Shown here in pieces: positions 9,740-58,767 of a stretch of 64,000 bases of DNA. Position numbers and translations under genes: made by a program. The notes beneath the pieces are model-generated. The model saw only the letters and a list, made by a program, of their open reading frames with translations, ran no database searches and had not been told where the DNA came from. Source of the DNA: Gammaproteobacteria bacterium (lineage in GTDB: Bacteria > Pseudomonadota > Gammaproteobacteria > Legionellales > Legionellaceae); contig JAPLRL010000035.1 of assembly GCA_026399205.1 (NCBI GenBank), forward strand, positions 15,310-79,309, read 5' to 3'. Each line of letters starts with the position of its first letter. Position 1 is the stretch's first letter.

Positions 9740-9810
9740 AAATCCGAGCCGCGACCGTCAGGGAGCGGAAGTTTAAAACTTCCGCTCCCTGACGGTCGCG
9801 GCTCGGATTT
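9740..9810. repeat. A-family palindrome (A1), 71 bp with perfect 35-nt arms
   Basis: AAATCCGAGCCGCGACCGTCAGGGAGCGGAAGTTT-A-AAACTTCCGCTCCCTGACGGTCGCGGCTCGGATTT. Confidence 0.9.
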
Positions 9811-27682: not shown

Positions 27683-27719
27683 GACTGCTGCCTTAAAAGA
27701 AGTATCTGAAAAAAGGTAT

Positions 27720-27783
27720 CCGAGCCGCGACCGTTAGGGAGCGGAAGTTTTAAAATTTCCGCTCCCTAACGGTCGCGGCTCGG
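27720..27783. repeat. A-family palindrome (A2)
   Basis: CCGAGCCGCGACCGTTAGGGAGCGGAAGTTTTAAAATTTCCGCTCCCTAACGGTCGCGGCTCGG, in a divergent promoter region. Confidence 0.9.
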
Positions 27784-27872
27784 TTAGATTGAGCAAAATA
27801 TTACGAATGGCGTTTCATTATGGAGACCGTAATAGTAATATTACTTTTTCTATGGCATCTACTCAAGAGATT

Positions 27873-37517: not shown

Positions 37518-37588
37518 CAAACCGAGCCGCGACCGTGAGGGAGCGGAAGTGTAAAATTTCCGCTCCCTCACGGTCGCGGCTCGGTTTG
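37518..37588. repeat. A-family palindrome (A3)
   Basis: CAAACCGAGCCGCGACCGTGAGGGAGCGGAA..TTCCGCTCCCTCACGGTCGCGGCTCGGTTTG. Confidence 0.9.
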
Positions 37589-38980: not shown

Positions 38981-39307
38981 AAAAATTCACTTGTTTAAGC
39001 AAGTCAGCATCCTCCTTCAAACACCGCACACCATCATCCGCCCTCGCCAAATACAACCCCATGATTTTATGCGCATCACTCGGGCCGCATTTTACTGTGG
39101 TGATCGGGAGATTCTAGACAGCTATGAGGTAAAAGCACGGAAAGAACCTGCGATCTATCCGCCTTTGGTAGAGCTTATTCGTCAGAGTCCTAACCCTGCG
39201 TTTATTGCAGCGGTTCATCAAAAACAGGGCTTGCAAACGGCGCGCCCAGTGCCGCAGGAAGTTGTTTATCACCCGCCGCTTGCGGTATATCGACCGCCAA
39301 ACACGGA

Positions 39308-39394
39308 ATCCGAGCCGCGACCGTTAGGAAGCGGAACATTTAAAACTACTGCGCTCTAATAAAACTTCCGCTCCCTAACGGTCGCGGCTCGGAT
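39308..39394. repeat. A-family, long variant (A4)
   Basis: The arms are as in A1. An extra ~20 nt in the loop looks like a partial duplicate of the right arm (AAAACTACTGCGCTCT / AAAACTTCCGCTCCCT). Confidence 0.85.
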
Positions 39395-39495
39395 GTATCG
39401 AGCGAATTTATCGAGCGGATATATGACATATCGCATCTTATCCTCAGGTACGATATACTACCGGCTTACTCACCAACCTACGCTAATGACCCACT

Positions 39496-42816: not shown

Positions 42817-42831
42817 CTGAGAGAAACAAGA

Positions 42832-42919
42832 AATCCGAGCCGCGACCGTCAGGAAGCGGAAATTTTAAACTCCCGCTCTCCAATAAAACTTCCGCTCCCT
42901 AACGGTCGCGGCTCGGATT
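42832..42919. repeat. A-family, long variant (A5), between convergent lptB and relA
   Basis: Same architecture as A4 (..TTAAACTCCCGCTCTCCAATAAAACTTCCGCTCCCT..). Confidence 0.85.
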
Positions 42920-42944
42920 GATCGAGGTATGCTTTAAGATCTGA

Positions 42945-47759: not shown

Positions 47760-47779
47760 GGCTTCCCTCTCTGGATCAT

Positions 47780-47847
47780 ATCCGAGCCGCGACCGTTAGG
47801 GAGCGGAAATTTTAAAACTTCCGCTCCCTAACGGTCGCGGCTCGGAT
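47780..47847. repeat. A-family palindrome (A6)
   Basis: ATCCGAGCCGCGACCGTTAGGGAGCGGAAATTTTAAAACTTCCGCTCCCTAACGGTCGCGGCTCGGAT, between dusA and yciO. Confidence 0.9.
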
Positions 47848-47848
47848 T

Positions 47849-48829
47849 TCAATACAATACATCAAAACACCCTTTTAAGCCATGCAAGTCTTCCATAGAG
47901 CGCACTCGCATTAAGGCATGTTTCCAGCGCTTTGCGTGCGCTTCACCATGCGCCATTGAAAACAAAGGGCGACATAAGCGTGGAAACGGTTCCCCCTCGC
48001 TTGCCTGCTGATAGGCATAATCAAGATAGGTATGAACGACCTCTTTAGGACTCAAAATGGGCGTTTCTGGATGTAACACGCGATGAATATCTGCCAATGC
48101 ATAGGGTTGGCGACACGCTAAACGACCAATCATCACGCCATCGACCTGGGCAAGGTGCGCTTGTACTTTTTCGATGTCATCAACTTGACCATTGATAATC
48201 ACCGGCAACTGCGGAAAGCGTTGTTTTAAAGCATATACATAATCATATTTCAAAGGCGGGGCCGTTCTATTTTGTTTGGGGTTTAGCCCCTTTAACCACG
48301 CAGATCGCGCATGAATAATAAGTTTATCTACACCTGCATCCACCAATTGAGTCGCCAAATTTAAGAAAAAATCTAGGCTATCCCATTCATCAACACCAAT
48401 GCGCATTTTAACGGTCACCGGGATGCGCGCCTCATGTTTCATGGCCGTAATACATGCAGCCACATGATCGCCTTCTTTCATGAGGCAAGCTCCAAAACGG
48501 CCTTGTTGAACTTTTTTACTGGGGCATCCTAAATTTAAATTCACTTCATCAAACCCAATCTCTTGCGCGATGTTCACACTTTCCACCAATCCAGCCAGAT
48601 CAGACCCACCGAGTTGTAAGGCAATTGGGTGTTCTGCGATATCGAAATGAACAGAGGTTTTCTTACGACGCAACACCGCTTGCAAGGGTTCCATTTCGGT
48701 ATAGAGCAAGGCCTGTGGCGCAATTAAACGCATAAGGCGCCGAAAATGCGTGTTGGTCCAATTCACCATCGGTGCAATAGAGAGCGGACAATGTAATACA
48801 GAAGACATAGACTGCATGGATTCAAACAC
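47849..48829 (-). CDS. dusA: tRNA dihydrouridine synthase DusA
   Basis: Shows LSIAPMVNWTNTHFRRLMRL..EVNLNLGCPS..VTVKMRIG..LIIHAR. Confidence 0.85.
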   Translation of the reverse strand: MFESMQSMSSVLHCPLSIAPMVNWTNTHFRRLMRLIAPQALLYTEMEPLQAVLRRKKTSVHFDIAEHPIALQLGGSDLAGLVESVNIAQEIGFDEVNLNLGCPSKKVQQGRFGACLMKEGDHVAACITAMKHEARIPVTVKMRIGVDEWDSLDFFLNLATQLVDAGVDKLIIHARSAWLKGLNPKQNRTAPPLKYDYVYALKQRFPQLPVIINGQVDDIEKVQAHLAQVDGVMIGRLACRQPYALADIHRVLHPETPILSPKEVVHTYLDYAYQQASEGEPFPRLCRPLFSMAHGEAHAKRWKHALMRVRSMEDLHGLKGCFDVLY

Positions 48830-50591: not shown

Positions 50592-50784
50592 ATTGAAGCG
50601 AATGGGGATGAGTTTAACGTATTGTGGGAAATGGTTCTAGGTTAACGCTCGAATACCAATAAACACTCGAATACCCCCAAACTTCTTCCATAAAACAGTC
50701 TCAACAGCATGCTCCTCTGTGACCGACTCTACTGTTGTATTCAAACGCCTGACCAAGTGTGTTATGATTATAACAAAAAAAAAT

Positions 50785-50922
50785 GTAACTACCCAGGTAC
50801 GTCATCCTGAGCGTAGCGAAGGATCTCAATTTGACAAAGATCTAGCCAAATTCAGGAGGTCCTTCACTGCGTTCAGGATGACGTTTGTTCGTTGTGAGTG
50901 CTAATAAAACAAACTTATCCAC
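50785..50922. mobile_element. C-family MITE, long form (C7); right end diverged or truncated
   Basis: Identical base for base to 4296..4433 by my side-by-side reading. It diverges after ..CTTATCCAC. It lies immediately upstream of the Mth938-like gene. Confidence 0.8.
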
Positions 50923-51310: not shown

Positions 51311-51431
51311 GTCCAGCGGCGACTCGGAACGTTCTTCACGTTCTAACGAGCTACGAGCCACCGGTGGACACGTCGCCTGAAAGTCTTCATTAACCTGCAG
51401 ACTCATCGCTAGGCTCCTTTGTCCACCCTAC
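51311..51431. repeat. E-family repeat, partial (E1)
   Basis: It ends in GGCTCCTTTGTCCACCCTAC. Its core CGAGCCACCGGTGGACACGTCGCC is the reverse complement of the E2 core. Confidence 0.75.
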
Positions 51432-52573
51432 AGTAACTTCTTCGCATCGTCTTCATCATTCTCGGGGGCACTCGATTGCCCAGGGCTACTTGTTGGTGTC
51501 GCCTGCGTGAAAAAAGTAGCAGGAATTGCCACTGTCGAGTTTTTTAGAGATACGAATTGAACGTCAAGTTGACTCACCAATTCGCCAAGCTCAGTCATCT
51601 GTTCTTCATCTTTATTTTTATTTTGTCTGATTCTTTTGAGTTTTGTGTGACCCGCATCTTTTCGTGCCTGCAACATTGTTAATTTTTTTTCATCAGGGGT
51701 GGTCGCCTGTTGTTCGGCTGCGATTGTTTGATCGAGCTTAGCTAACATTCTGTTTAGGGCCCACTCTTCTCTTGTCCTGATATCTAACACCAATTGAATC
51801 ACTATATGTTCACGGCAAAGTTGGCTGCGTAAGGTTGAATAATCCTCAGTTGAAAGTGACGAATGTGTATTGATTTCACGATCAGCAACGACTAGTAATT
51901 TCTCTAGACACTGAATACGGGACTGATCAATTTCTATCTCAGTTCCCATTTTTATCACTTGTGCTTCAGGCGATTGTGTACGAATCATCGCTTTTTGTAG
52001 ATCGAGCATCCCAATGGTGTGATGATAGTGTTCAATTTCCCTTAAAGCTGCTTCTGTGCTCATCGGCACACTTGAATTCGTAGCATCTAATGGGTCCGTT
52101 ATTTCTCGGCGTAAAGGTGAGCTGGGATCTGATTCTTCTCGAGTATGGCGCGCGAATAGACCCATTATTTCTGTTACCATCGTCTTCAATTTAAATTGAA
52201 CATTAATTTTATGAACCAGATCTTCTAGTTTCTGAATTTGTTTTCTACATAGCGCTGTTTTTTCATCACCCTGAGCTAACCCGCTGTTTAATACTTTTTC
52301 AGTTTCAACCAAAACAGCTAGCTCACGATAGAGTTGTATTCTCAAATGCCCAAAAAAAGCCAAATCGTTCATGTGTTCAGGAGGTGATTTTTGTTTGGTC
52401 AGGTCAAATTCACCTTTCACGATGGCCTGTTCTGCAGAGAAACATAGACGATCTAGATATTCAGCACGCGCGTGCCTCGATTGAGGGGTTTGTTTTCGAA
52501 GATCGATCTGTGCAATGTGTTCATGCAAGGTTTCGATTGTTTTTAATATTTGTGTATTTATCATATATAGCAA
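51428..52573 (-). CDS. hypothetical coiled-coil protein
   Basis: 381-aa ORF with long helical heptad-like stretches and an acidic tail (..APENDEDDAKKLL). The stop codon TAG (51428..51430) lies in the terminal repeat of E1. Confidence 0.5.
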   Translation of the reverse strand: MLYMINTQILKTIETLHEHIAQIDLRKQTPQSRHARAEYLDRLCFSAEQAIVKGEFDLTKQKSPPEHMNDLAFFGHLRIQLYRELAVLVETEKVLNSGLAQGDEKTALCRKQIQKLEDLVHKINVQFKLKTMVTEIMGLFARHTREESDPSSPLRREITDPLDATNSSVPMSTEAALREIEHYHHTIGMLDLQKAMIRTQSPEAQVIKMGTEIEIDQSRIQCLEKLLVVADREINTHSSLSTEDYSTLRSQLCREHIVIQLVLDIRTREEWALNRMLAKLDQTIAAEQQATTPDEKKLTMLQARKDAGHTKLKRIRQNKNKDEEQMTELGELVSQLDVQFVSLKNSTVAIPATFFTQATPTSSPGQSSAPENDEDDAKKLL

Positions 52574-52696
52574 CCATTAGTCTGATTGTATATACAGTAT
52601 ATGTTTAGTTTTTAATTTATGCAAATAGACGTCTTTGCCCACCCCACACTCTTCTGTTACACTCAAAATATCGTCACACCTATTTCAAGGATCCAC

Positions 52697-53110
52697 ATGT
52701 CTTACAAACGCATTTTGCATGCCACAGATTTACAAAGCGATCATTTTAAGATGTGTGAACAAGCACTCGCTTTTGCAAAATATCATCAAGCGCCACTCTA
52801 TTTAATTCACGTCATTGAAACCCCGCAAAGCTTACTCCTTGCGCAAACACTGGGGTTCGTCGAGCTCGTGGAACCGGCTAAAGAACTTGCCCTAACGGTT
52901 TTAAAAACCATTGCAGATGCCCTGGCACTTCCTTATGAAAATTTATTTGTAGAAACCGGCTCGATTAAAAACCATGTCGTAGACAAAGCAACCGCATTAC
53001 ATTGCGATTTAATCATGGTGGGCAGGCAAGCTGCAGAAGGGTTTTCTCTAGGAAGTACCACATGTCAAATTGCACAACATATGCCATGTGATTTGCTGAT
53101 TTTGCGGTAA
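52697..53110 (+). CDS. universal stress protein (UspA family)
   Basis: I set the start at MSYKRILHATDL. It shows ..LYLIHVIE.. and ..DLIMVGRQ..LGSTTCQIAQHMPCDLLIL. Confidence 0.75.
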   Translation: MSYKRILHATDLQSDHFKMCEQALAFAKYHQAPLYLIHVIETPQSLLLAQTLGFVELVEPAKELALTVLKTIADALALPYENLFVETGSIKNHVVDKATALHCDLIMVGRQAAEGFSLGSTTCQIAQHMPCDLLILR

Positions 53111-53213: not shown

Positions 53214-53825
53214 CTAACTGATAAACTCTGTACGCAAACACGCGCTTTTCATCCAATGTTTAAGCGTAGTCTCCATGTCAGCTGCGCCACTCTCCCCGAA
53301 ATCATTCGCAATCCACCCTTCAACCTGACACTGATTCGCCAACAAAACTGCCTCAGTCAATAACGCATGATTTATACACCCCAACCGTAACCCCACAACC
53401 AAAATCACGGGGATATTCAAGAGATGAATCACATCCACCCAAGTTTGATGCGCATTCAACGGGACCAAGAGCCCCCCGGCCCCTTCAATCAACACGGTAT
53501 CCACAGGCTGTTTTTGTATCGCTTCAAGACACCATGTCGCGATATCTTCAGCACATAATTCAACACCAACTGCGCTTGCTGCCAAATGTGGTGCGATGGG
53601 GGGTTCGAATGCCCATGGGGTGCGCAGTGACGCGCCTCCTAAGACCGCATCATACTGAAGCACATCTTCACTGACCCACTGCCCAGCTTGCTGAATACAA
53701 CCGCTCGCCACAGGCTTTAAAGCCAGCACCCGTTGCTGCTGACTCAGTGCAGCGCGAATCAGTTCACACATCACATGCGTCTTACCAATGTTGGTGTCTG
53801 TTCCTGTAATAAAAAATGATTTCAT
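53214..53825 (-). CDS. bioD: dethiobiotin synthase
   Basis: Shows FFITGTDTNIGKT..LIEGAGG and sits in the bio operon. The start overlaps the upstream stop (ATGA). Confidence 0.85.
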   Translation of the reverse strand: MKSFFITGTDTNIGKTHVMCELIRAALSQQQRVLALKPVASGCIQQAGQWVSEDVLQYDAVLGGASLRTPWAFEPPIAPHLAASAVGVELCAEDIATWCLEAIQKQPVDTVLIEGAGGLLVPLNAHQTWVDVIHLLNIPVILVVGLRLGCINHALLTEAVLLANQCQVEGWIANDFGESGAADMETTLKHWMKSACLRTEFIS

Positions 53826-54487
53826 GGTTTAAGTCGCATCCAGCCTATAACTCCCACATCAACAACTAGCCAATGATCCGCAGGCGTTTTCATTAATTTC
53901 AAACGTCTCGCATACTGAGGTTTTTCCCATGGTAGGTTAAAATAATTTTGTTCTGCAATGAGGACGCTTTCATGCTCAACCCCAACAATCACCGCAACAT
54001 GTCCAGTTTCCTCAAGCGTTTGATCATAAATCAGTAAATCGCCAGTGCGCGGGTGTACATCTGTCTCTTTATTTTTAAAATGCTGCCAGGGTAAGGATTG
54101 TTTGGTGTGAATCAATTGCGCATCAGTTAAATCCCAAATTTGATAGGCTTGTTTAACGTCTGCAAAGGTCACGCCTTTGTTTTCTATGAGCCAGCGTCTG
54201 GCATATTCTACACATTGCCACTGCATGCCTGTGTATATTTTTTTACCTGACAGTGTGATGTGATGCGGTACTTCACTGACACAATCGCCATTACAATTGC
54301 TATATCCGATTGTTTTTTCTGATTGACCTAACGGGGTTCCGAAAGGCGCGTGGCAGTTTTCCTTACACATGTGGGTCTCGATATGTTTTGCATGAACGGG
54401 CTCTATAATGCTTATGAGTAATAGGGCTACTAACATTAATATTAGGCCCAAACTACAACGATGCAGCAACTGTGTAGGCTGTATCAT
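53822..54487 (-). CDS. secreted CHAP-domain protein, glutathionylspermidine-amidase-like
   Basis: Has an N-terminal signal/anchor (LGLILMLVALLLISIIEPVHA). APFGTPLG..YTGMQWQCVEYARRWLIENKGVTFADVKQAYQIWDL..GDLLIYDQTLEETGHVAVIVGVEHESVLIAEQNY..VIGWMRL is collinear with the N-terminal amidase domain of E. coli Gss (..HKWQCVEFARRFL..TGHVAII..IAEQN..ILGWM). Both gene junctions are ATGA overlaps. Confidence 0.75.
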   Translation of the reverse strand: MIQPTQLLHRCSLGLILMLVALLLISIIEPVHAKHIETHMCKENCHAPFGTPLGQSEKTIGYSNCNGDCVSEVPHHITLSGKKIYTGMQWQCVEYARRWLIENKGVTFADVKQAYQIWDLTDAQLIHTKQSLPWQHFKNKETDVHPRTGDLLIYDQTLEETGHVAVIVGVEHESVLIAEQNYFNLPWEKPQYARRLKLMKTPADHWLVVDVGVIGWMRLKP

Positions 54488-55212
54488 GGTTTGTCAATTT
54501 CGATAATGCATTTTAAATACGCCACAACCCGCTCAGAATGCGACAAAAAAGGTGCGTGCGCAGCGTCATTTAAAAGCAAATAATCAAATTGAGGATACTG
54601 CGCCTTGACGCTATCATGCGTTGTCGCTGGCACAATAGCATCGAGTCTGCCAAACACAAATGCGCCTTTGTTAAGGGTTTTTAAGGCTTCACGTGCGTCC
54701 CAGGATTTTAAAATAGCTAAGCCTTCTTCGAGAGCGGTCACACTGGCCTGACGACCAATACTCAGATGAGCGCGATGCGGCGCTTGAAGCTTTAAAAAGT
54801 CTGTTAATGTTTTTTCAGGATTTTGCGCAAATTGTGACATAAATGTATCAAATGCTTCGGCAGTAATGCCAGGCCATTGTGCCTCGGCGATAAATTTTGG
54901 TGAGGCTGAAATCGCAATAAACTGTTTCACCAACAACGGGGCTTCTAGGGCTAGGCGCATTGCGTACGCACCACCCAACGACCAACCTACTGCATAACAG
55001 GCCGGAGGTAGGCGTTGACTTAAGGTTGCAACAAAGGCGTCCCAGCTGATGTGATCACTATAGCCATATCCTGGTAAATCAACTAAATACACCGTCGCAA
55101 ATGGCGTTAACAAGGGAATAATGGGTTGCCAAATTTGGCTATCAAATCCCCATCCATGAAAAAACACCATGGGAACCGCGCCATTGCCATGCGTTTCAAT
55201 CTTGAGAGTCAT
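54484..55212 (-). CDS. bioH: pimeloyl-ACP methyl ester carboxylesterase BioH
   Basis: Alpha/beta hydrolase with VFFHGWGFDSQIW..VDLPGYGYS..GWSLGG..AAHAPFLSH, collinear with E. coli BioH. Confidence 0.8.
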   Translation of the reverse strand: MTLKIETHGNGAVPMVFFHGWGFDSQIWQPIIPLLTPFATVYLVDLPGYGYSDHISWDAFVATLSQRLPPACYAVGWSLGGAYAMRLALEAPLLVKQFIAISASPKFIAEAQWPGITAEAFDTFMSQFAQNPEKTLTDFLKLQAPHRAHLSIGRQASVTALEEGLAILKSWDAREALKTLNKGAFVFGRLDAIVPATTHDSVKAQYPQFDYLLLNDAAHAPFLSHSERVVAYLKCIIEIDKP

Positions 55213-56311
55213 GTTCTGCTACCTGATGAATGATTTCTAGTAAACGTAAAATCTGTGCTTGTGTGTGATCGGCGTGTAACACAATTCTTAAACCGGTATG
55301 CGCAAGGCTAACGGTAGGCGGGCGAATCGCTCGGCAAAATAGGCCTTGTTTTCCCAATTGCTCAGCAAACCCTATGGCTTTTGCGGAATTGCCTAAGACT
55401 AAATGTTGAATAGGCGTCTCTGAGTCAAGCCATGATAAAGGTGAGTGCAATACGTTCAACTTAAAAAACGCCACATTCTCAAATAGCCGCCCTCTTTGTT
55501 CATCGGCCTCACGCACAAACTGTAAAACCGACGGCAGTGCCGCAGCATATGCAGGACTCATCGCGGTTGAATAAATCGCACCCCTGGCCACTTGCAGTAA
55601 TGCGTTGACCCACTGTGCTTGCCCTGCGACCACTGCCCCTTGGGCGCCACAGGCTTTACCGAGTGGAATAACCCGCAGCGGGACCTCACATTGTGTCAAC
55701 CCACAGGCCTGCACCCGACCTAAGCCTTCATGGCCATACAAACCAAATGCATGTGCCTCATCTACAATCATCGGTGTCATGGGCGCTAAGGTGTCAAAAG
55801 GGGTTAAGTGGCCGCCCATGCTAAATACGCTCTCCGTCACCCATAGGGGTTCGCTCGCTTTTGACCAGTGTTGCTCGAATAAATCATAGCGTTGGTGCGG
55901 GTAACGGATGAGTTTCCCCCCACTTAATTTTAAGCCATCATAAAAAGACGCGTGACTGGATTTATCCATGATGACGCAGTGCCCCAACTGAGCGAGGAGT
56001 GCCATGATAGCAAGATTGGCGACATAGCCAGAATTAAATAACATGGCACTCTCAACTTCAAGTGCGTCACAAAACGCGGCCTCAACCTGACGATGGGCGG
56101 CATGATAGCCGCAAATGACAGTCGAGCCCCCACTCCCCAACGGGTAATCAGCAAATGCTTGTTGAAAAATGGGTTTAAGCCGCAAATCATTCGAAAGGGC
56201 TAAATAATCGTTGCTAGAAAAATCAAGCTCAGCCTGACGTAATTGTCGCTCCCGATACAAGCCTTTGTTTTTTAATGCCTCAACACTCAACAGCATGAGA
56301 CACTGCATCAA
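55196..56311 (-). CDS. bioF: 8-amino-7-oxononanoate synthase
   Basis: PLP enzyme with [32 protein letters not shown](H), in bio operon order. Confidence 0.9.
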
Positions 56312-57245
56312 GCCGCTGAGGCGTCATGCCTAATTTTTTAAACAAGGCCTCATCACGACACGGCTTCGGATTGTCTGCGGTTAAGAGGCGCTCGCCTAAA
56401 AATACCGAATTAACCCCCGCACAAAAACACATCGCTTGTAATTCATCACTCATTTCAGTGCGTCCCGCACTCAGGCGAATCACACTTTTCGGCATGATAA
56501 TACGCGCGGTTGCAATGGTTCTGACCAACTCTAAGGGTTCAATGGGATTGGCTTTGGCAAGCGGCGTGCCTTCAACCGGAATCAATGAATTAATGGGGAC
56601 GCTTGTCGGTGCAGGTGATAAATTCGCTAAGGTCATTAAAAATGAAATGCGATCGTCGCGACTTTCACCTAAACCTAAAATGCCGCCACAACACACCCCA
56701 ATGCCTGCTGCTTGAACATTCGCCAAAGTTTGTAAGCGATCACTATAACATCGGGTGGTCACAATTTTTTTATAATGAGCTTCGGAGGTATCGAGGTTAT
56801 GGTTATAAAAATCAAGCCCTGCGTCTTTAAGACGCGCGGCTTGCGTGGGTTCTAGCATCCCCAAAGTCATGCAGGTTTCTAAGCCCATGGCCTTGACCGA
56901 TTGAATCATGTCTACCAATAACGGCATAGATTTTTCAGGCGGACTACGCCACGCAGCCCCCATACAAAACCGAGTCGCACCACTTGCTTTCGCTGCCGCT
57001 GCTTTTTCGACAACACTGGCCAGCGTCATCAGTTTTTCTTTTTGCAGCTCGGTATTGTGATGACCGCTTTGCGAACAATAACCACAATCTTCAGGACAAG
57101 CCCCTGTTTTAATACTCAACAAAGTCGCCAACTCAATAGCCGCCGGATCATGATGCAAACGATGCACGGTTTGTGCTTCATAGAGTAACGATGAAAAGGG
57201 TTGAGTATAAATAGCTTCAACCTGTGACTGATCCCAATTGTTCAT
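56280..57245 (-). CDS. bioB: biotin synthase
   Basis: Radical SAM motif [11 protein letters not shown], plus ..FCMGAAWR.. and ..YNHNLDTS... Confidence 0.95.
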
Positions 57246-57267
57246 ATCCTGACCTTACGTTGACGCC

Positions 57268-57400
57268 ATTCTCAACCTCTCACTCGAACTAACCGAGCCG
57301 CGACCGTTAGGGAGCGGAAATTTTAAAAGAACACGAAAGTATTAAAACTTCCGCTCCCTAACGGTCGCGGCTCGGATTGTATCGCGTGAAAGTTGAGAAT
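57268..57400. promoter_or_regulatory. 16-18 bp inverted repeat in the bioB/bioA divergent region, arms separated by repeat A7 (candidate split operator)
   Basis: The left arm is ATTCTCAACCTCTCACTC (57268..57285). The right arm is GCGTGAAAGTTGAGAAT (57384..57400), whose reverse complement is ATTCTCAACTTTCACGC. About 14 of 17 positions match. Confidence 0.3.
57293..57375. repeat. A-family, long variant (A7), in the bioB/bioA divergent region
   Basis: CCGAGCCGCGACCGTTAGGGAGCGGAAATTTTAAAAGAACACGAAAGTATTAAAACTTCCGCTCCCTAACGGTCGCGGCTCGG. Confidence 0.9.
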
Positions 57401-57465
57401 CGCGTTACTTTTATGTTCACAACATGATAAAGTGAAAGTCTATACAGAGCAAGAACCATAGCATT

Positions 57466-58767
57466 ATGATTGACCCCAATGACACCCTTATCGCCAGAGA
57501 TCTAGCTCATCATTGGCATCCTGCTATGCGTAGACAAGACTTTAACCTGGTGCCGCCACTTGTCATTCATTCCGCCAAAGGATCGTATCTTGAAACCGCT
57601 CAAGGCCCTGTGATTGATGCCATCTCTAGTTGGTGGTGTAAACCTTTAGGGCATCAACACCCGGCGATTATTCAAGCCATTCAAACGCAGTTGTCTTTGT
57701 TTGAGCATGTCATTTCGGCCCATACGACACATCCACCGCTGGTCGAGCTCGTTGAAAAACTAGCCTCTCTCAGTGGCTTATCCCATGTGTTGTTCGCAAG
57801 TGATGGGTCATCTGCCGTAGAAATTGCCTTAAAACTGATTATTCATGCAAGGCACCTCGAAGGACAATCACATAAAACGCATTTTTTGTCTTTCAAACAG
57901 GCCTATCATGGAGAAACGCTGGCCACATTGAGCGTGAGTGATTTGGGGCGTTATAAAGATCCTTACCAAGCCTTTTGCTTTCCGACCCACTTTATTGATA
58001 TTCCCTACACGAGCGGATTAAACGATCCCTTGTCTCATGATGCGGCAACGCTCTGGGAGCTAACCCAAATACAGCTTGAGCGCATTAAAGATACATTAAC
58101 CGCAGTGATTTTTGAACCGATCATTCAAGGCAGCGCAGGCATGCAATGCTACAGCGTTGATTTTTTAAAACGCCTGATTCAATGGGCACAACAAAACGGC
58201 ATTTACTGTATTGCAGATGAAATCATGACCGGATTTTGCCGAACGGGGGCCTGGTTTGCCACCCAATATACAGGTGAAACCCCTGATTTAATCTGTGTGT
58301 CTAAAGGCTTAACGGGTGGGTCTATGCCACTGAGTGCCGTTTTGATCAGCAAACACATCCAGCAGTGCTTTCAAGAAGAGCCCTTTTTGCATTCCCACAC
58401 GTATAGTGGTCACGCACTCGCCATCAGTGCAGCCCTGGCGACCTTGACCCTTTTAGAATCAGAGTCTTTTAATCAGCAGGCTCATCAACTACAAAAGGCG
58501 ATGTCAGATGCCTTTACTTGGCTGCAAGACAACACGAAAAAGCTCACTCATCAACGCGGCATAGGCGGCATCATCGCCGCTGACCTGCTCCCAGGCCCTC
58601 ACGCCAGAATGGGGTTTAAGCTGCACCAAGAAGCGCTCAAACGCGGTGTTTTGCTGCGGCCCATTGGGAATACGCTGTATTGGTTTCCACCGTTGAATAT
58701 TTCAAAAAATACGTTAGAAGCGTTGACGGAAAAAACATATCAGGCCATTCTAGCGACTTATGGTTAG
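57466..58767 (+). CDS. bioA: adenosylmethionine-8-amino-7-oxononanoate aminotransferase
   Basis: Class III aminotransferase with SSWWC..GH.HP, ..ADEIMTGFCRTG.. and ..VSKGLTGG... It is divergent from bioB. Confidence 0.9.
   Translation: MIDPNDTLIARDLAHHWHPAMRRQDFNLVPPLVIHSAKGSYLETAQGPVIDAISSWWCKPLGHQHPAIIQAIQTQLSLFEHVISAHTTHPPLVELVEKLASLSGLSHVLFASDGSSAVEIALKLIIHARHLEGQSHKTHFLSFKQAYHGETLATLSVSDLGRYKDPYQAFCFPTHFIDIPYTSGLNDPLSHDAATLWELTQIQLERIKDTLTAVIFEPIIQGSAGMQCYSVDFLKRLIQWAQQNGIYCIADEIMTGFCRTGAWFATQYTGETPDLICVSKGLTGGSMPLSAVLISKHIQQCFQEEPFLHSHTYSGHALAISAALATLTLLESESFNQQAHQLQKAMSDAFTWLQDNTKKLTHQRGIGGIIAADLLPGPHARMGFKLHQEALKRGVLLRPIGNTLYWFPPLNISKNTLEALTEKTYQAILATYG

Follow-up and report, generated by a model that had tools for sequence, protein, structure and literature searches.

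The gene that separates bioH from bioD in the biotin operon described here, which we call X, appears to encode an exported amidase of the glutathionylspermidine (Gsp) type that has been inserted into an operon of the Legionella type, is expressed together with it, and has no role in the synthesis of pimeloyl-ACP; we would put the probability of this reading at roughly two in three. The operon lies in a stretch of 64 kb, which we refer to as the window. On the minus strand it reads bioB-bioF-bioH-X-bioD, with bioA divergent from it (Table 1). An earlier note on this DNA had taken X to occupy the place of bioC, the gene for the methyltransferase that opens pimelate-thioester synthesis, and had raised the possibility that this synthesis starts differently in the organism. 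The evidence presented below leads away from that possibility and toward a gene that is an addition to an operon from which bioC was already absent.

Results

Gene Order and Control of the Operon

The order of the five genes, and an ATGA overlap at each of the two junctions of X, can be read directly in the sequence, as the earlier note had described: the stop of bioH and the start of X share 4 nt (54484-54487), as do the stop of X and the start of bioD (53822-53825). BioB carries the Radical_SAM and BATS domains of Pfam. The start codon of bioF is uncertain, and gene callers arrive at a product of 366 aa (the called gene in L086). BioH, which scores 163 bits against TIGR01738, below the equivalog cutoff of 207, is an alpha/beta hydrolase according to Pfam, and its position in the operon matches that of the Legionella BioH. 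The Usp-family gene that faces bioD serves as a synteny marker common to other contigs on which X and bioD are joined; it is the same neighbour in L089 and L175. In its one-strand order, its divergent bioA, and the lack of bioC in the cluster, the operon follows the Legionella-type bioA/bioBFHD arrangement, with X as one added gene.

Because X overlaps its neighbours at both ends and has no room for a promoter or terminator of its own, it almost certainly shares a transcript with the other genes of the operon and has its translation tied to theirs. We propose that the level of X, and any biotin-responsive control to which it may be subject, would be whatever the operon has. Inside the operon there are 9 promoter-like sites, where 7.8 are expected from shuffling, and 7 terminator-like sites, where 5.7 are expected; neither is in excess, and with counts at the shuffle expectation an internal promoter or terminator that isolates X was rejected. 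A BirA-type operator was sought in the bioA/bioB spacer and none could be assigned; the spacer instead holds one copy of a dispersed REP-like palindrome (57288-57380) and a unique inverted repeat of 14 nt, whose arms lie on either side of it (57263-57276 and 57392-57405). The base composition of X is unremarkable, both in GC and in GC3, the latter (0.39) falling inside the range of the neighbouring genes, and a recent horizontal insertion was rejected on these grounds.

Table 1. Features of the biotin operon and of gene X, in window coordinates
Feature	Coordinates	Strand	Basis or remark
bioA (adenosylmethionine-8-amino-7-oxononanoate transaminase)	57466..58767	+	TIGR00508, 418.7 bits (cutoff 405)
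bioA/bioB divergent control region	57246..57465	.	between divergent bioA and bioB
bioB (biotin synthase), operon gene 1	56280..57245	-	TIGR00433, 395 bits (cutoff 225)
bioF (8-amino-7-oxononanoate synthase)	55196..56311	-	TIGR00858, E 4.5e-93
bioH-type pimeloyl-ACP methyl ester esterase	54484..55212	-	TIGR01738, E 6.7e-48, full length
X, predicted exported stand-alone Gsp-amidase-type CHAP cysteine amidase	53822..54487	-	NCBI MCX7114901.1, 221 aa
X, putative signal peptide, residues 1-33	54389..54487	-	n-region ends HR; core LGLILMLVALLLISII; VHA/K site
X, cysteine-rich segment (Cys41, Cys45, Cys65, Cys69)	54281..54367	-	alignment
X, predicted catalytic Cys92 codon (WQCVEY)	54212..54214	-	aligned to 3A2Z; corresponds to Cys59 in the E. 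coli Gsp amidase
X, His163 codon (TGHVAV)	53999..54001	-	aligns to the His of GHVA in E. coli Gsp amidase
X, Glu179 codon (AEQN)	53951..53953	-	aligns to the Glu of AEQN in E. coli Gsp amidase
bioD (dethiobiotin synthase)	53214..53825	-	TIGR00347, 127 bits (cutoff 83)
Usp-family gene, convergent with bioD	52619..53110	+	Pfam Usp

Family, Fold, and Predicted Export of X

That X resembles the CHAP domain of Gsp amidase and lacks the features of a methyltransferase had been recognised from the letters alone, and profile searches bear this out. Residues 85-181 match the Pfam CHAP family (PF05257) with 46.7 bits (cutoff 26, E 4.5e-12), X aligns with positions 7-189 of NF007801, the model of E. coli Gss, at E 1.2e-30, and its residues 46-217 are collinear with residues 9-189 of the Gsp amidase structure 3A2Z (E 1.6e-19). 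Judged by these alignments, the profile and structure matches far exceed chance. They reach beyond the CHAP core to cover the whole N-terminal amidase domain of E. coli Gss (approximately residues 1-195). X is not a complete Gss: it scores 106 of the 882 bits needed for the NF007801 equivalog, and its 221 aa do not include the ATP-grasp synthetase domain. The AF2 model of X (pLDDT 89) finds its best PDB matches by Foldseek in the E. coli Gsp amidase entries 3A2Y and 3A30 (E approximately 1e-15, target TM 0.81-0.85), and the top 20 matches are without exception Gss or trypanothione synthetase-amidase, at E 1e-15 to 2e-12. The CHAP domains of endolysins reach E approximately 5e-4 at best, with TM between 0.35 and 0.45.

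The predicted nucleophile of X corresponds to a cysteine whose role in the E. coli Gsp amidase has been described (PMC6272389). Cys92, His163, and the run Glu179-Gln180-Asn181 are invariant in all 34 of the 34 homologues aligned. By sequence and by model, then, X belongs to the Gsp/trypanothione amidase branch of the CHAP superfamily, and its activity is predicted. No methyltransferase family in Pfam or NCBIfam matches X at E<=0.1, and Pfam detects in it no cell-wall-binding module of the LysM, SH3/SH3b, or PG_binding kind. Nor is X an esterase of the type represented by BioH, BioG, BioK, BioJ, and BioV; those enzymes have an alpha/beta-hydrolase fold with a Ser-His-Asp triad, whereas the fold of X is the papain-like one of CHAP domains.

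Ahead of the amidase domain lies what had been read as an export signal, a hydrophobic N-terminus that ends in VHA followed by lysine. The 12-mer from residue 16 has a mean Kyte-Doolittle value of 3.3, the model places a helix at residues 7-26 and then a low-confidence linker, and an equivalent hydrophobic N-terminus is found in 96 of 120 homologues. By the -3/-1 rule, cleavage would fall between VHA and the lysine. Alignment also shows that the four cysteines of the segment that follows are missing from the cytoplasmic E. coli Gss; exactly four are present in the corresponding segment of 68 of 119 homologues, and in X they probably form two disulfides (from Cys41, Cys45, Cys65, and Cys69). 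The signal-peptide-like N-terminus and the conserved extra cysteines together lead us to predict that X is exported and acts outside the cytoplasm.

The bioC Question

In Coxiella and Pseudomonas the operon is bioBFHCD (PMC5423948, PMC9894557), and the claim that relatives carry bioC where X stands is correct for these two. It does not extend to Legionella, which had been named alongside them: in L. pneumophila the cluster consists of bioA and bioBFHD, and bioC is located apart from it (PMC9894557). L. lytica, too, has bioBFHD divergent from bioA and no bioC, with bioH and bioD joined by an ATGA overlap. The two operons with the closest BioD (L180 and L181; 55-58% identity) repeat this pattern, bioB-F-H-D with bioA divergent, no bioC, and a direct ATGA overlap of bioH and bioD with no gene between; the zapD-coaE-bioA neighbourhood of the window is found in L180 as well. 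Since bioH and bioD of these relatives overlap directly, X is an insertion at the bioH/bioD junction, not a gene in a bioC slot. The ground state in Legionellales is bioBFHD with a divergent bioA and with bioC elsewhere.

Searches of the window agree with this. A regular expression for SAM motif I found none in window ORFs of at least 100 aa, Pfam gives no methyltransferase match for the 18 ORFs of the window that are 200-345 aa long or for two neighbours of the operon, and E. coli BioC has no tblastn match in the 64 kb at E<=1. From the relatives and the literature we infer that bioC is encoded elsewhere in the source genome. The earlier note had offered two alternatives, and the evidence favours the one in which bioC lies elsewhere and an amidase has come under the expression of the bio operon, the location of bioC being taken from relatives. 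The other, a different start to pimelate synthesis, is unsupported: a BioH-type esterase has been kept, and X appears to be an exported hydrolase of papain fold.

Recurrence of the Linkage to bio Genes

An identical bioB-F-H-X-D contig occurs in three independent Logan assemblies (SRR20698642, -43, and -44), and X and bioD are tightly joined on contigs from three other metagenomic lineages. The clade with X in the operon is represented in samples SRR20698642, SRR22387925, SRR28401842, and IMG 3300080686. In L171 the junction is an ATGA overlap and in L089 a gap of 1 nt; L175 has, in addition, the C-terminus of BioH upstream and Usp downstream. Tight coupling of X to bioD is kept in four of four lineages with X in the operon, the window's included, and the X proteins of these lineages are only approximately 52-70% identical. 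L. lytica (assembly GCA_044626755.1, protein WP_400186239.1) and a sister lineage have an X homologue just after bioD, in convergent orientation.

Elsewhere the linkage is absent. Approximately 160 of the 169 homologue loci, those of other Legionella and Legionellaceae among them, have no association with bio genes, and for the near homologues P0008, P0010, P0025, and P0077 no bio gene is within reach. The same CHAP gene is therefore found outside bio operons in relatives, an occurrence that the earlier note would have read, given a bioC elsewhere, as the mark of a chance insertion. When the neighbours at 81 loci were clustered, the only recurrent block was an Rce1-like gene with tig-clpP-clpX, at approximately 25 distant gammaproteobacterial loci; this block is clade synteny and uninformative on function. 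No metabolic operon partner other than bio recurs among the approximately 170 loci. The exported, stand-alone Gsp-amidase-like family as a whole has approximately 800 representatives at 50% identity, and its carriers include Legionellales, Chlamydiae, many sulfur-oxidising and other Gammaproteobacteria, and Bdellovibrio-like predators. A few related lineages have retained X as an additional gene; it does not replace BioC.

Discussion

We suggest that, at the precise point where bioH and bioD overlapped, the operon acquired a gene for a cysteine amidase that is exported by the Sec pathway and probably stabilised by disulfides, and that the host of this insertion would have been an uncultured lineage of Legionellales. 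The enzyme would be produced in step with the biotin operon and would cut an amide bond outside the cytoplasm by means of Cys92, His163, and Glu179. Its substrate is most plausibly a small conjugate that resembles a glutathionyl- or acyl-polyamine, or else a peptide-linked amide. The pimeloyl-ACP step would be left to BioC, a cytoplasmic SAM-dependent methyltransferase encoded elsewhere in the genome. Two considerations weigh against this reading. The retention of X in the operon of lineages with X proteins only approximately 52-70% identical, taken with its different placement beside bioD in L. lytica and the sister lineage, exceeds the association with bio genes that a purely neutral insertion would predict, and the catalytic thiol of X has to be kept in its reduced state although the compartment is oxidising.

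Peptidoglycan is the substrate of most exported CHAP domains (PF05257) that have been characterised, and X could be an ordinary hydrolase of this sort, serving in wall remodelling or in attack on other bacteria and present in the operon by chance. Its predicted export would suit such a role, as would a weak NlpC/P60 signal (E 0.059) and the presence of homologues in the predatory Bacteriovoracaceae, Halobacteriovoraceae, and Oligoflexales. We nevertheless consider it unlikely, since the entire 180-residue domain, and not the CHAP core alone, is collinear with Gsp amidase, the match to the Gsp/trypanothione amidase fold is better by approximately 11 orders of magnitude than that to any peptidoglycan-hydrolase CHAP, and LysM, SH3b, and PG_binding modules are lacking. 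A different proposal gives weight to the recurrent linkage: X would be a biotinidase-like exoenzyme that releases biotin, outside the cytoplasm, from biotinylated peptides or from biocytin (biotinyl-epsilon-lysine), and biotin shortage, in a host vacuole for example, would induce it alongside de novo synthesis. The amide cut by Gsp amidase is of the acyl-NH-(CH2)n kind, and in formal terms so is the bond between biotin and lysine. The bio-linked gene exists in two arrangements (in the operon of four lineages, and convergent after bioD in L. lytica and its sister), with tight coupling to bioD wherever it is in the operon and with no other metabolic operon partner recurring among the approximately 170 loci; many of its carriers (Legionellales, Chlamydiae) are intracellular, and the bio genes of Coxiella are up-regulated in host cells (PMC5423948). 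Set against this are the roughly 160 of 169 loci with no bio gene within reach, the absence of any evident active-site change between in-operon and unlinked X proteins in the alignment, and the lack of a biotin transporter gene nearby; moreover, both arrangements may stem from a single chance adjacency and local rearrangement. Known biotinidases come from a superfamily unrelated to CHAP, the vertebrate enzyme being a member of the nitrilase superfamily, and in the literature we found neither a CHAP enzyme tied to biotin nor a relevant bacterial biotinidase. (Nothing relevant was found there on Legionella CHAP proteins and type II secretion, either.) We regard a salvage role as decidedly improbable, and as more doubtful still the specific form of it in which X, within the clade that has it in the operon and perhaps in L. 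lytica, would be the bacterial counterpart of biotinidase, so that the operon combines synthesis with salvage.

The idea that X replaces BioC, or that it belongs to a new route by which pimelate-thioester synthesis begins, draws on the absence of bioC from both the operon and the 64-kb window and on the co-expression of X with the pathway genes that the overlaps imply. Related operons, however, have no bioC whether X is present or absent, so its absence is ancestral and unrelated to X. The BioH-type esterase, which is useful only after a methylation of the BioC type, has been retained, and X has no SAM-binding motif; its fold is papain-like, and it has a signal peptide and, probably, disulfides formed outside the cytoplasm. 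Such a role is hardly credible. As the source is a metagenome-assembled genome, the arrangement might in principle be a chimera of assembly or binning, and this we can set aside almost entirely: the same contig is present in three independent run-level assemblies, and the join of X to bioD recurs in three further lineages whose samples are unrelated, which refutes an assembly artefact.

The operon that contains X does not conceal a new way of starting biotin synthesis, Legionella-type operons keeping bioC elsewhere. What X does offer is a way into the exported, stand-alone Gsp-amidase-like family, of which we found no characterised member and for which the recurrent bio linkage is the sole contextual clue to function. 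One clade keeps the gene translationally coupled in the biotin operon, and the L. lytica group keeps a homologue beside bioD. This linkage yields a hypothesis that is cheap to test, namely a role in salvaging biotin or expression triggered by biotin starvation, and L. lytica exists as an isolate.

Among known systems, those closest to X in structure are the amidase domains of E. coli Gss/GspSA (3A2Y, 3A2Z, 3A30, 2IO7) and of the trypanothione synthetase-amidase of trypanosomatids (2VOB, 2VPS), which have the same whole-domain fold at 32-34% identity, approximately 175 collinear residues, and the WQCVE, GHVA, and AEQN motifs in common with it. Unlike Gss, X is a stand-alone protein of 221 aa with no ATP-grasp synthetase domain, and its sequence adds a signal peptide as well as four cysteines that Gss lacks, features that place it outside the cytoplasm, where the occurrence of Gsp is not known. 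CHAP endolysins and autolysins such as LysK CHAPK (4CSH) and LysGH15 (4OLK) belong to the same superfamily and share the Cys-His catalytic core, but their structural match to X is weak (E approximately 5e-4, TM 0.35-0.45, 13-14% identity). With vertebrate biotinidase there is at most an analogy of reaction type, an acyl-alkylamine amide attacked by a cysteine nucleophile, and no homology. As for the operon, bioBFHCD of Pseudomonas and Coxiella likewise has five genes, one of them between bioH and bioD, but there the intervening gene is bioC (PMC5423948, PMC9894557) and in the window it encodes an unrelated hydrolase. The L. pneumophila cluster, bioBFHD with a divergent bioA (PMC9894557), has the genes, order, and orientation seen in the window, and it, too, is without bioC. 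The window differs in having the gene for a predicted exported amidase between bioH and bioD, at a point where those of relatives overlap directly through ATGA. The ancestral operon of the window's lineage had no gene between the two.

Results

The gene between bioH and bioD (X) lies exactly where the earlier note had placed it, and direct reading of the sequence bears out both of the overlaps claimed there: an ATGA at 54484-54487 is common to the bioH stop and the X start, and another at 53822-53825 to the X stop and the bioD start. Three run-level assemblies made independently of each other (SRR20698642, -43, and -44) each contain an identical bioB-F-H-X-D contig; it is therefore not a chimera, and an assembly artefact is exceedingly improbable. 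The BioH-type protein is matched over its full length by an NCBIfam model and holds BioH's position in the operon; its scores lie below both BioH equivalog cutoffs (163 versus 207 bits; 126 versus 449), and the BioH of Legionellales appears to be a divergent subgroup.

Features of the biotin locus and copies of the REP-like palindrome (window positions; those of the REP-like copies are approximate)
Feature	Position	Strand	Remark
bioA	57466-58767		divergent from bioB-F-H-X-D
bioB	56280-57245	minus	
bioF	55196-56311	minus	
bioH-type alpha/beta hydrolase gene	54484-55212	minus	
X	53822-54487	minus	
bioD	53214-53825	minus	
REP-like copy	9740-9810		
REP-like copy	27716-27787		
REP-like copy	37518-37588		
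REP-like copy	39306-39396		
REP-like copy	42831-42920		
REP-like copy	47778-47849		
REP-like copy	57288-57380		bioA/bioB spacer

The same 9 nt, AAACCATGA, make both X junctions (54484-54492 and 53822-53830, minus strand), where the proteins end in DKP* (bioH) and LKP* (X), and they recur at the X/bioD junction of L171, another locus with an X homologue; X insertion may have left the repeat as a footprint or used it as microhomology, or it may be a coincidence. Downstream of the operon, just past the Usp gene, lies a 381-aa ORF (51428-52573, minus strand) with no Pfam match, and a 378-aa gene is called at the matching position on L086, an independent contig with the same operon. The short ORF between recJ and the next gene (50719-50904, plus strand) is probably non-coding repeat DNA; its translation contains HPERSEGSQ, which we take to be a signature typical of translated intergenic repeat elements.

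X is deposited as MCX7114901.1, annotated just as [quoted passage not shown] It scores 46.7 bits against Pfam CHAP (threshold 26), aligns to the E. coli Gss model over its positions 7-189 (E 1.2e-30), and is collinear with the Gsp amidase domain as solved in 3A2Z (E 1.6e-19). Across an alignment of 34 diverse homologues the motifs WQC(92)VEY, TGH(163)VAV, and AE(179)QN are invariant, and those around Cys92, His163, and Glu179 align with Cys59, GHVA, and AEQN of Gsp amidase, in which Cys59 is catalytic (PMC6272389). The 20 best PDB matches to an AlphaFold2 model of X (mean pLDDT 89) are all Gsp amidases or trypanothione synthetase-amidases (E 1e-15 to 2e-12; target TM up to 0.85), whereas CHAP endolysins reach E of about 5e-4 and TM 0.35-0.45. 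Because profile, 3A2Z alignment, motifs, and fold all match, X is a member of the Gsp-amidase branch in particular, not an ordinary cell-wall CHAP protein; the earlier note had already seen its collinearity with the amidase domain of E. coli Gss. That note saw no methyltransferase motifs, and Pfam and NCBIfam profile searches likewise give no methyltransferase signal in X.

The N-terminal signal or anchor sequence described previously is also upheld: a hydrophobic stretch covers residues 12-30 or so and ends in VHA|K, the model has a helix at 7-26 followed by a disordered linker, and an equivalent stretch occurs in 96 of 120 homologues. Relative to the cytoplasmic Gss, X has four added cysteines after the signal (41, 45, 65, and 69), and exactly four such cysteines are found in 68 of 119 homologues. 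From these features we infer an extracytoplasmic, disulfide-bonded enzyme with a cleaved signal peptide.

No intergenic sequence separates X from either neighbor. An independent promoter and terminator isolating the gene would, according to the earlier note, have refuted its reading; counts of promoter-like and terminator-like matches over the operon agree with shuffle expectation. Since, in addition, X does not stand out in GC or GC3, we can reasonably infer that X would be co-transcribed and translationally coupled with the bio operon. No repressor operator was identified in the divergent bioA/bioB spacer, so biotin regulation of the operon is an assumption from other bacteria. The spacer holds one of seven window copies of a REP-like palindrome (arms about 30 nt, CCGAGCCGCGACCGTTAGGGAGCGGAA / TTCCGCTCCCTAACGGTCGCGGCTCGG; variable loop roughly 5-30 nt); the copies lie between ORFs, and the arm pattern is matched 14 times (7 pairs), with 0 expected by chance. 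A 14-nt inverted repeat, ACGCCATTCTCAAC / GTTGAGAATCGCGT (57263-57276 and 57392-57405), flanks the spacer copy, and alignment of the other six copies shows no counterpart in their flanks; REP insertion may have split an operator here, or the repeat may be due to chance.

At 50% identity the X family comprises 803 representatives with E<=1e-3, of which 35 reach E<=1e-30; its members come from Legionellaceae, Chlamydiae, many Gammaproteobacteria (Thiotrichales, Chromatiales-like lineages), some Alphaproteobacteria, and Bdellovibrio-like lineages. Among 80 species-representative and 80 JGI metagenome loci, bio genes lie within 10 kb of the homologue in L. lytica only, and the close homologues P0004, P0010, P0025, and P0077, checked individually, have no bio linkage. 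In a simple neighbour-joining tree X groups, with weak support for its own inclusion, with the homologues P0002, P0003, and P0005, at all three of whose loci bioD follows immediately. The two genes share an ATGA overlap at L171, are 1 nt apart at L089, and overlap by 4 nt at L175; a convergent Usp gene follows at L089, as in the window, and at L175. The L175 adjacency was foretold from the tree and then found on look-up, and the fragment upstream is clearly a BioH C-terminus with the AH.PF motif. This shared X-bioD-Usp synteny is a stronger argument for the grouping than the tree. Identity among these proteins ranges from 52 to 70%, and the arrangement has therefore been kept across substantial divergence.

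In L. lytica and a sister lineage (78% identical proteins) the homologue comes directly after bioD and is convergent; the remaining Legionella-clade members examined have none beside bioD. Two arrangements among roughly 170 loci are more than expected for a randomly placed gene, and both are explicable by a single old adjacency with local rearrangement.

Other neighborhoods were also seen. At L084, a 2.3-Mb JGI contig (10001-13969), a same-strand gene with a weak Pfam Glyoxalase match begins 22 nt after P0077, which groups with the L. lytica clade, and a glutathione S-transferase gene and a YkuD_2 L,D-transpeptidase-like gene are nearby; in this single case the glutathione-related neighbors would fit a glutathionyl-amide substrate. 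At L018 (10614-15419) and at about 25 further loci from Gammaproteobacteria, the homologues are distant (35-40% identity); they adjoin tig-clpP-clpX and are convergent with a gene for an Rce1-like/CPBP membrane protease, an arrangement that looks like clade synteny.

Discussion

The suggestion that X occupies the slot of bioC fits the bioBFHCD operons of Coxiella and Pseudomonas (PMC5423948, PMC9894557) and is wrong for this lineage. In L. pneumophila the cluster is bioA/BFHD, with the places of bioC and bioH swapped relative to E. coli (PMC9894557), and bioC is therefore outside it. L. lytica has bioA|bioB-F-H-D, as do the two operons with the closest BioD (55% and 58% identity), both with a direct bioH/bioD ATGA overlap and one, L180, sharing the zapD-coaE-bioA neighborhood of the window. 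The best BioD matches that bear names are all from Legionella or Legionellales, which places the organism in Legionellales. Judged from gene order in these relatives, the ancestral operon is bioBFHD, and X was inserted precisely where bioH and bioD meet; bioC was missing from the operon before X arrived, independently of it. A tblastn, Pfam, and SAM-motif search found no BioC-like gene within the 64-kb window. That a BioH-type esterase has been kept speaks for the usual BioC/BioH route operating here and, together with the independent absence of bioC from the operon, makes replacement of BioC by X, or the different start of pimelate synthesis that the earlier note had offered, very improbable.

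We favor, with a probability of about 0.68, the reading of X as an exported cysteine amidase of the Gsp-amidase type that would hydrolyze an extracytoplasmic amide substrate (its class taken from homology) and would ride on the bio transcript, while bioC would lie elsewhere in the genome and X would have no role in pimelate synthesis. A conventional peptidoglycan hydrolase is unlikely, given that the fold comparison favors Gsp amidase over CHAP endolysins and that X has no wall-binding modules. The recurrent bio linkage, and by analogy the type of bond cleaved, would suit a biotinidase-like salvage enzyme; we consider this quite unlikely, as the majority of the family is unlinked to bio genes and no difference is seen between the active sites of the bio-linked clade and the unlinked members.

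The surprise at the level of the pathway is thus gone. The bio linkage is the only contextual clue to an uncharacterized enzyme family, and L. lytica provides a testable model. Unlike E. coli Gss, which is cytoplasmic, X has no synthetase domain and begins with a classical export signal. Both the CHAP/Gsp-amidase fold and the bioBFHD operon type are already known, and the literature searched holds no description of an exported stand-alone Gsp-amidase homologue inside such an operon; what is new is the combination, a homologue of this kind wedged into a bioBFHD operon and retained there.
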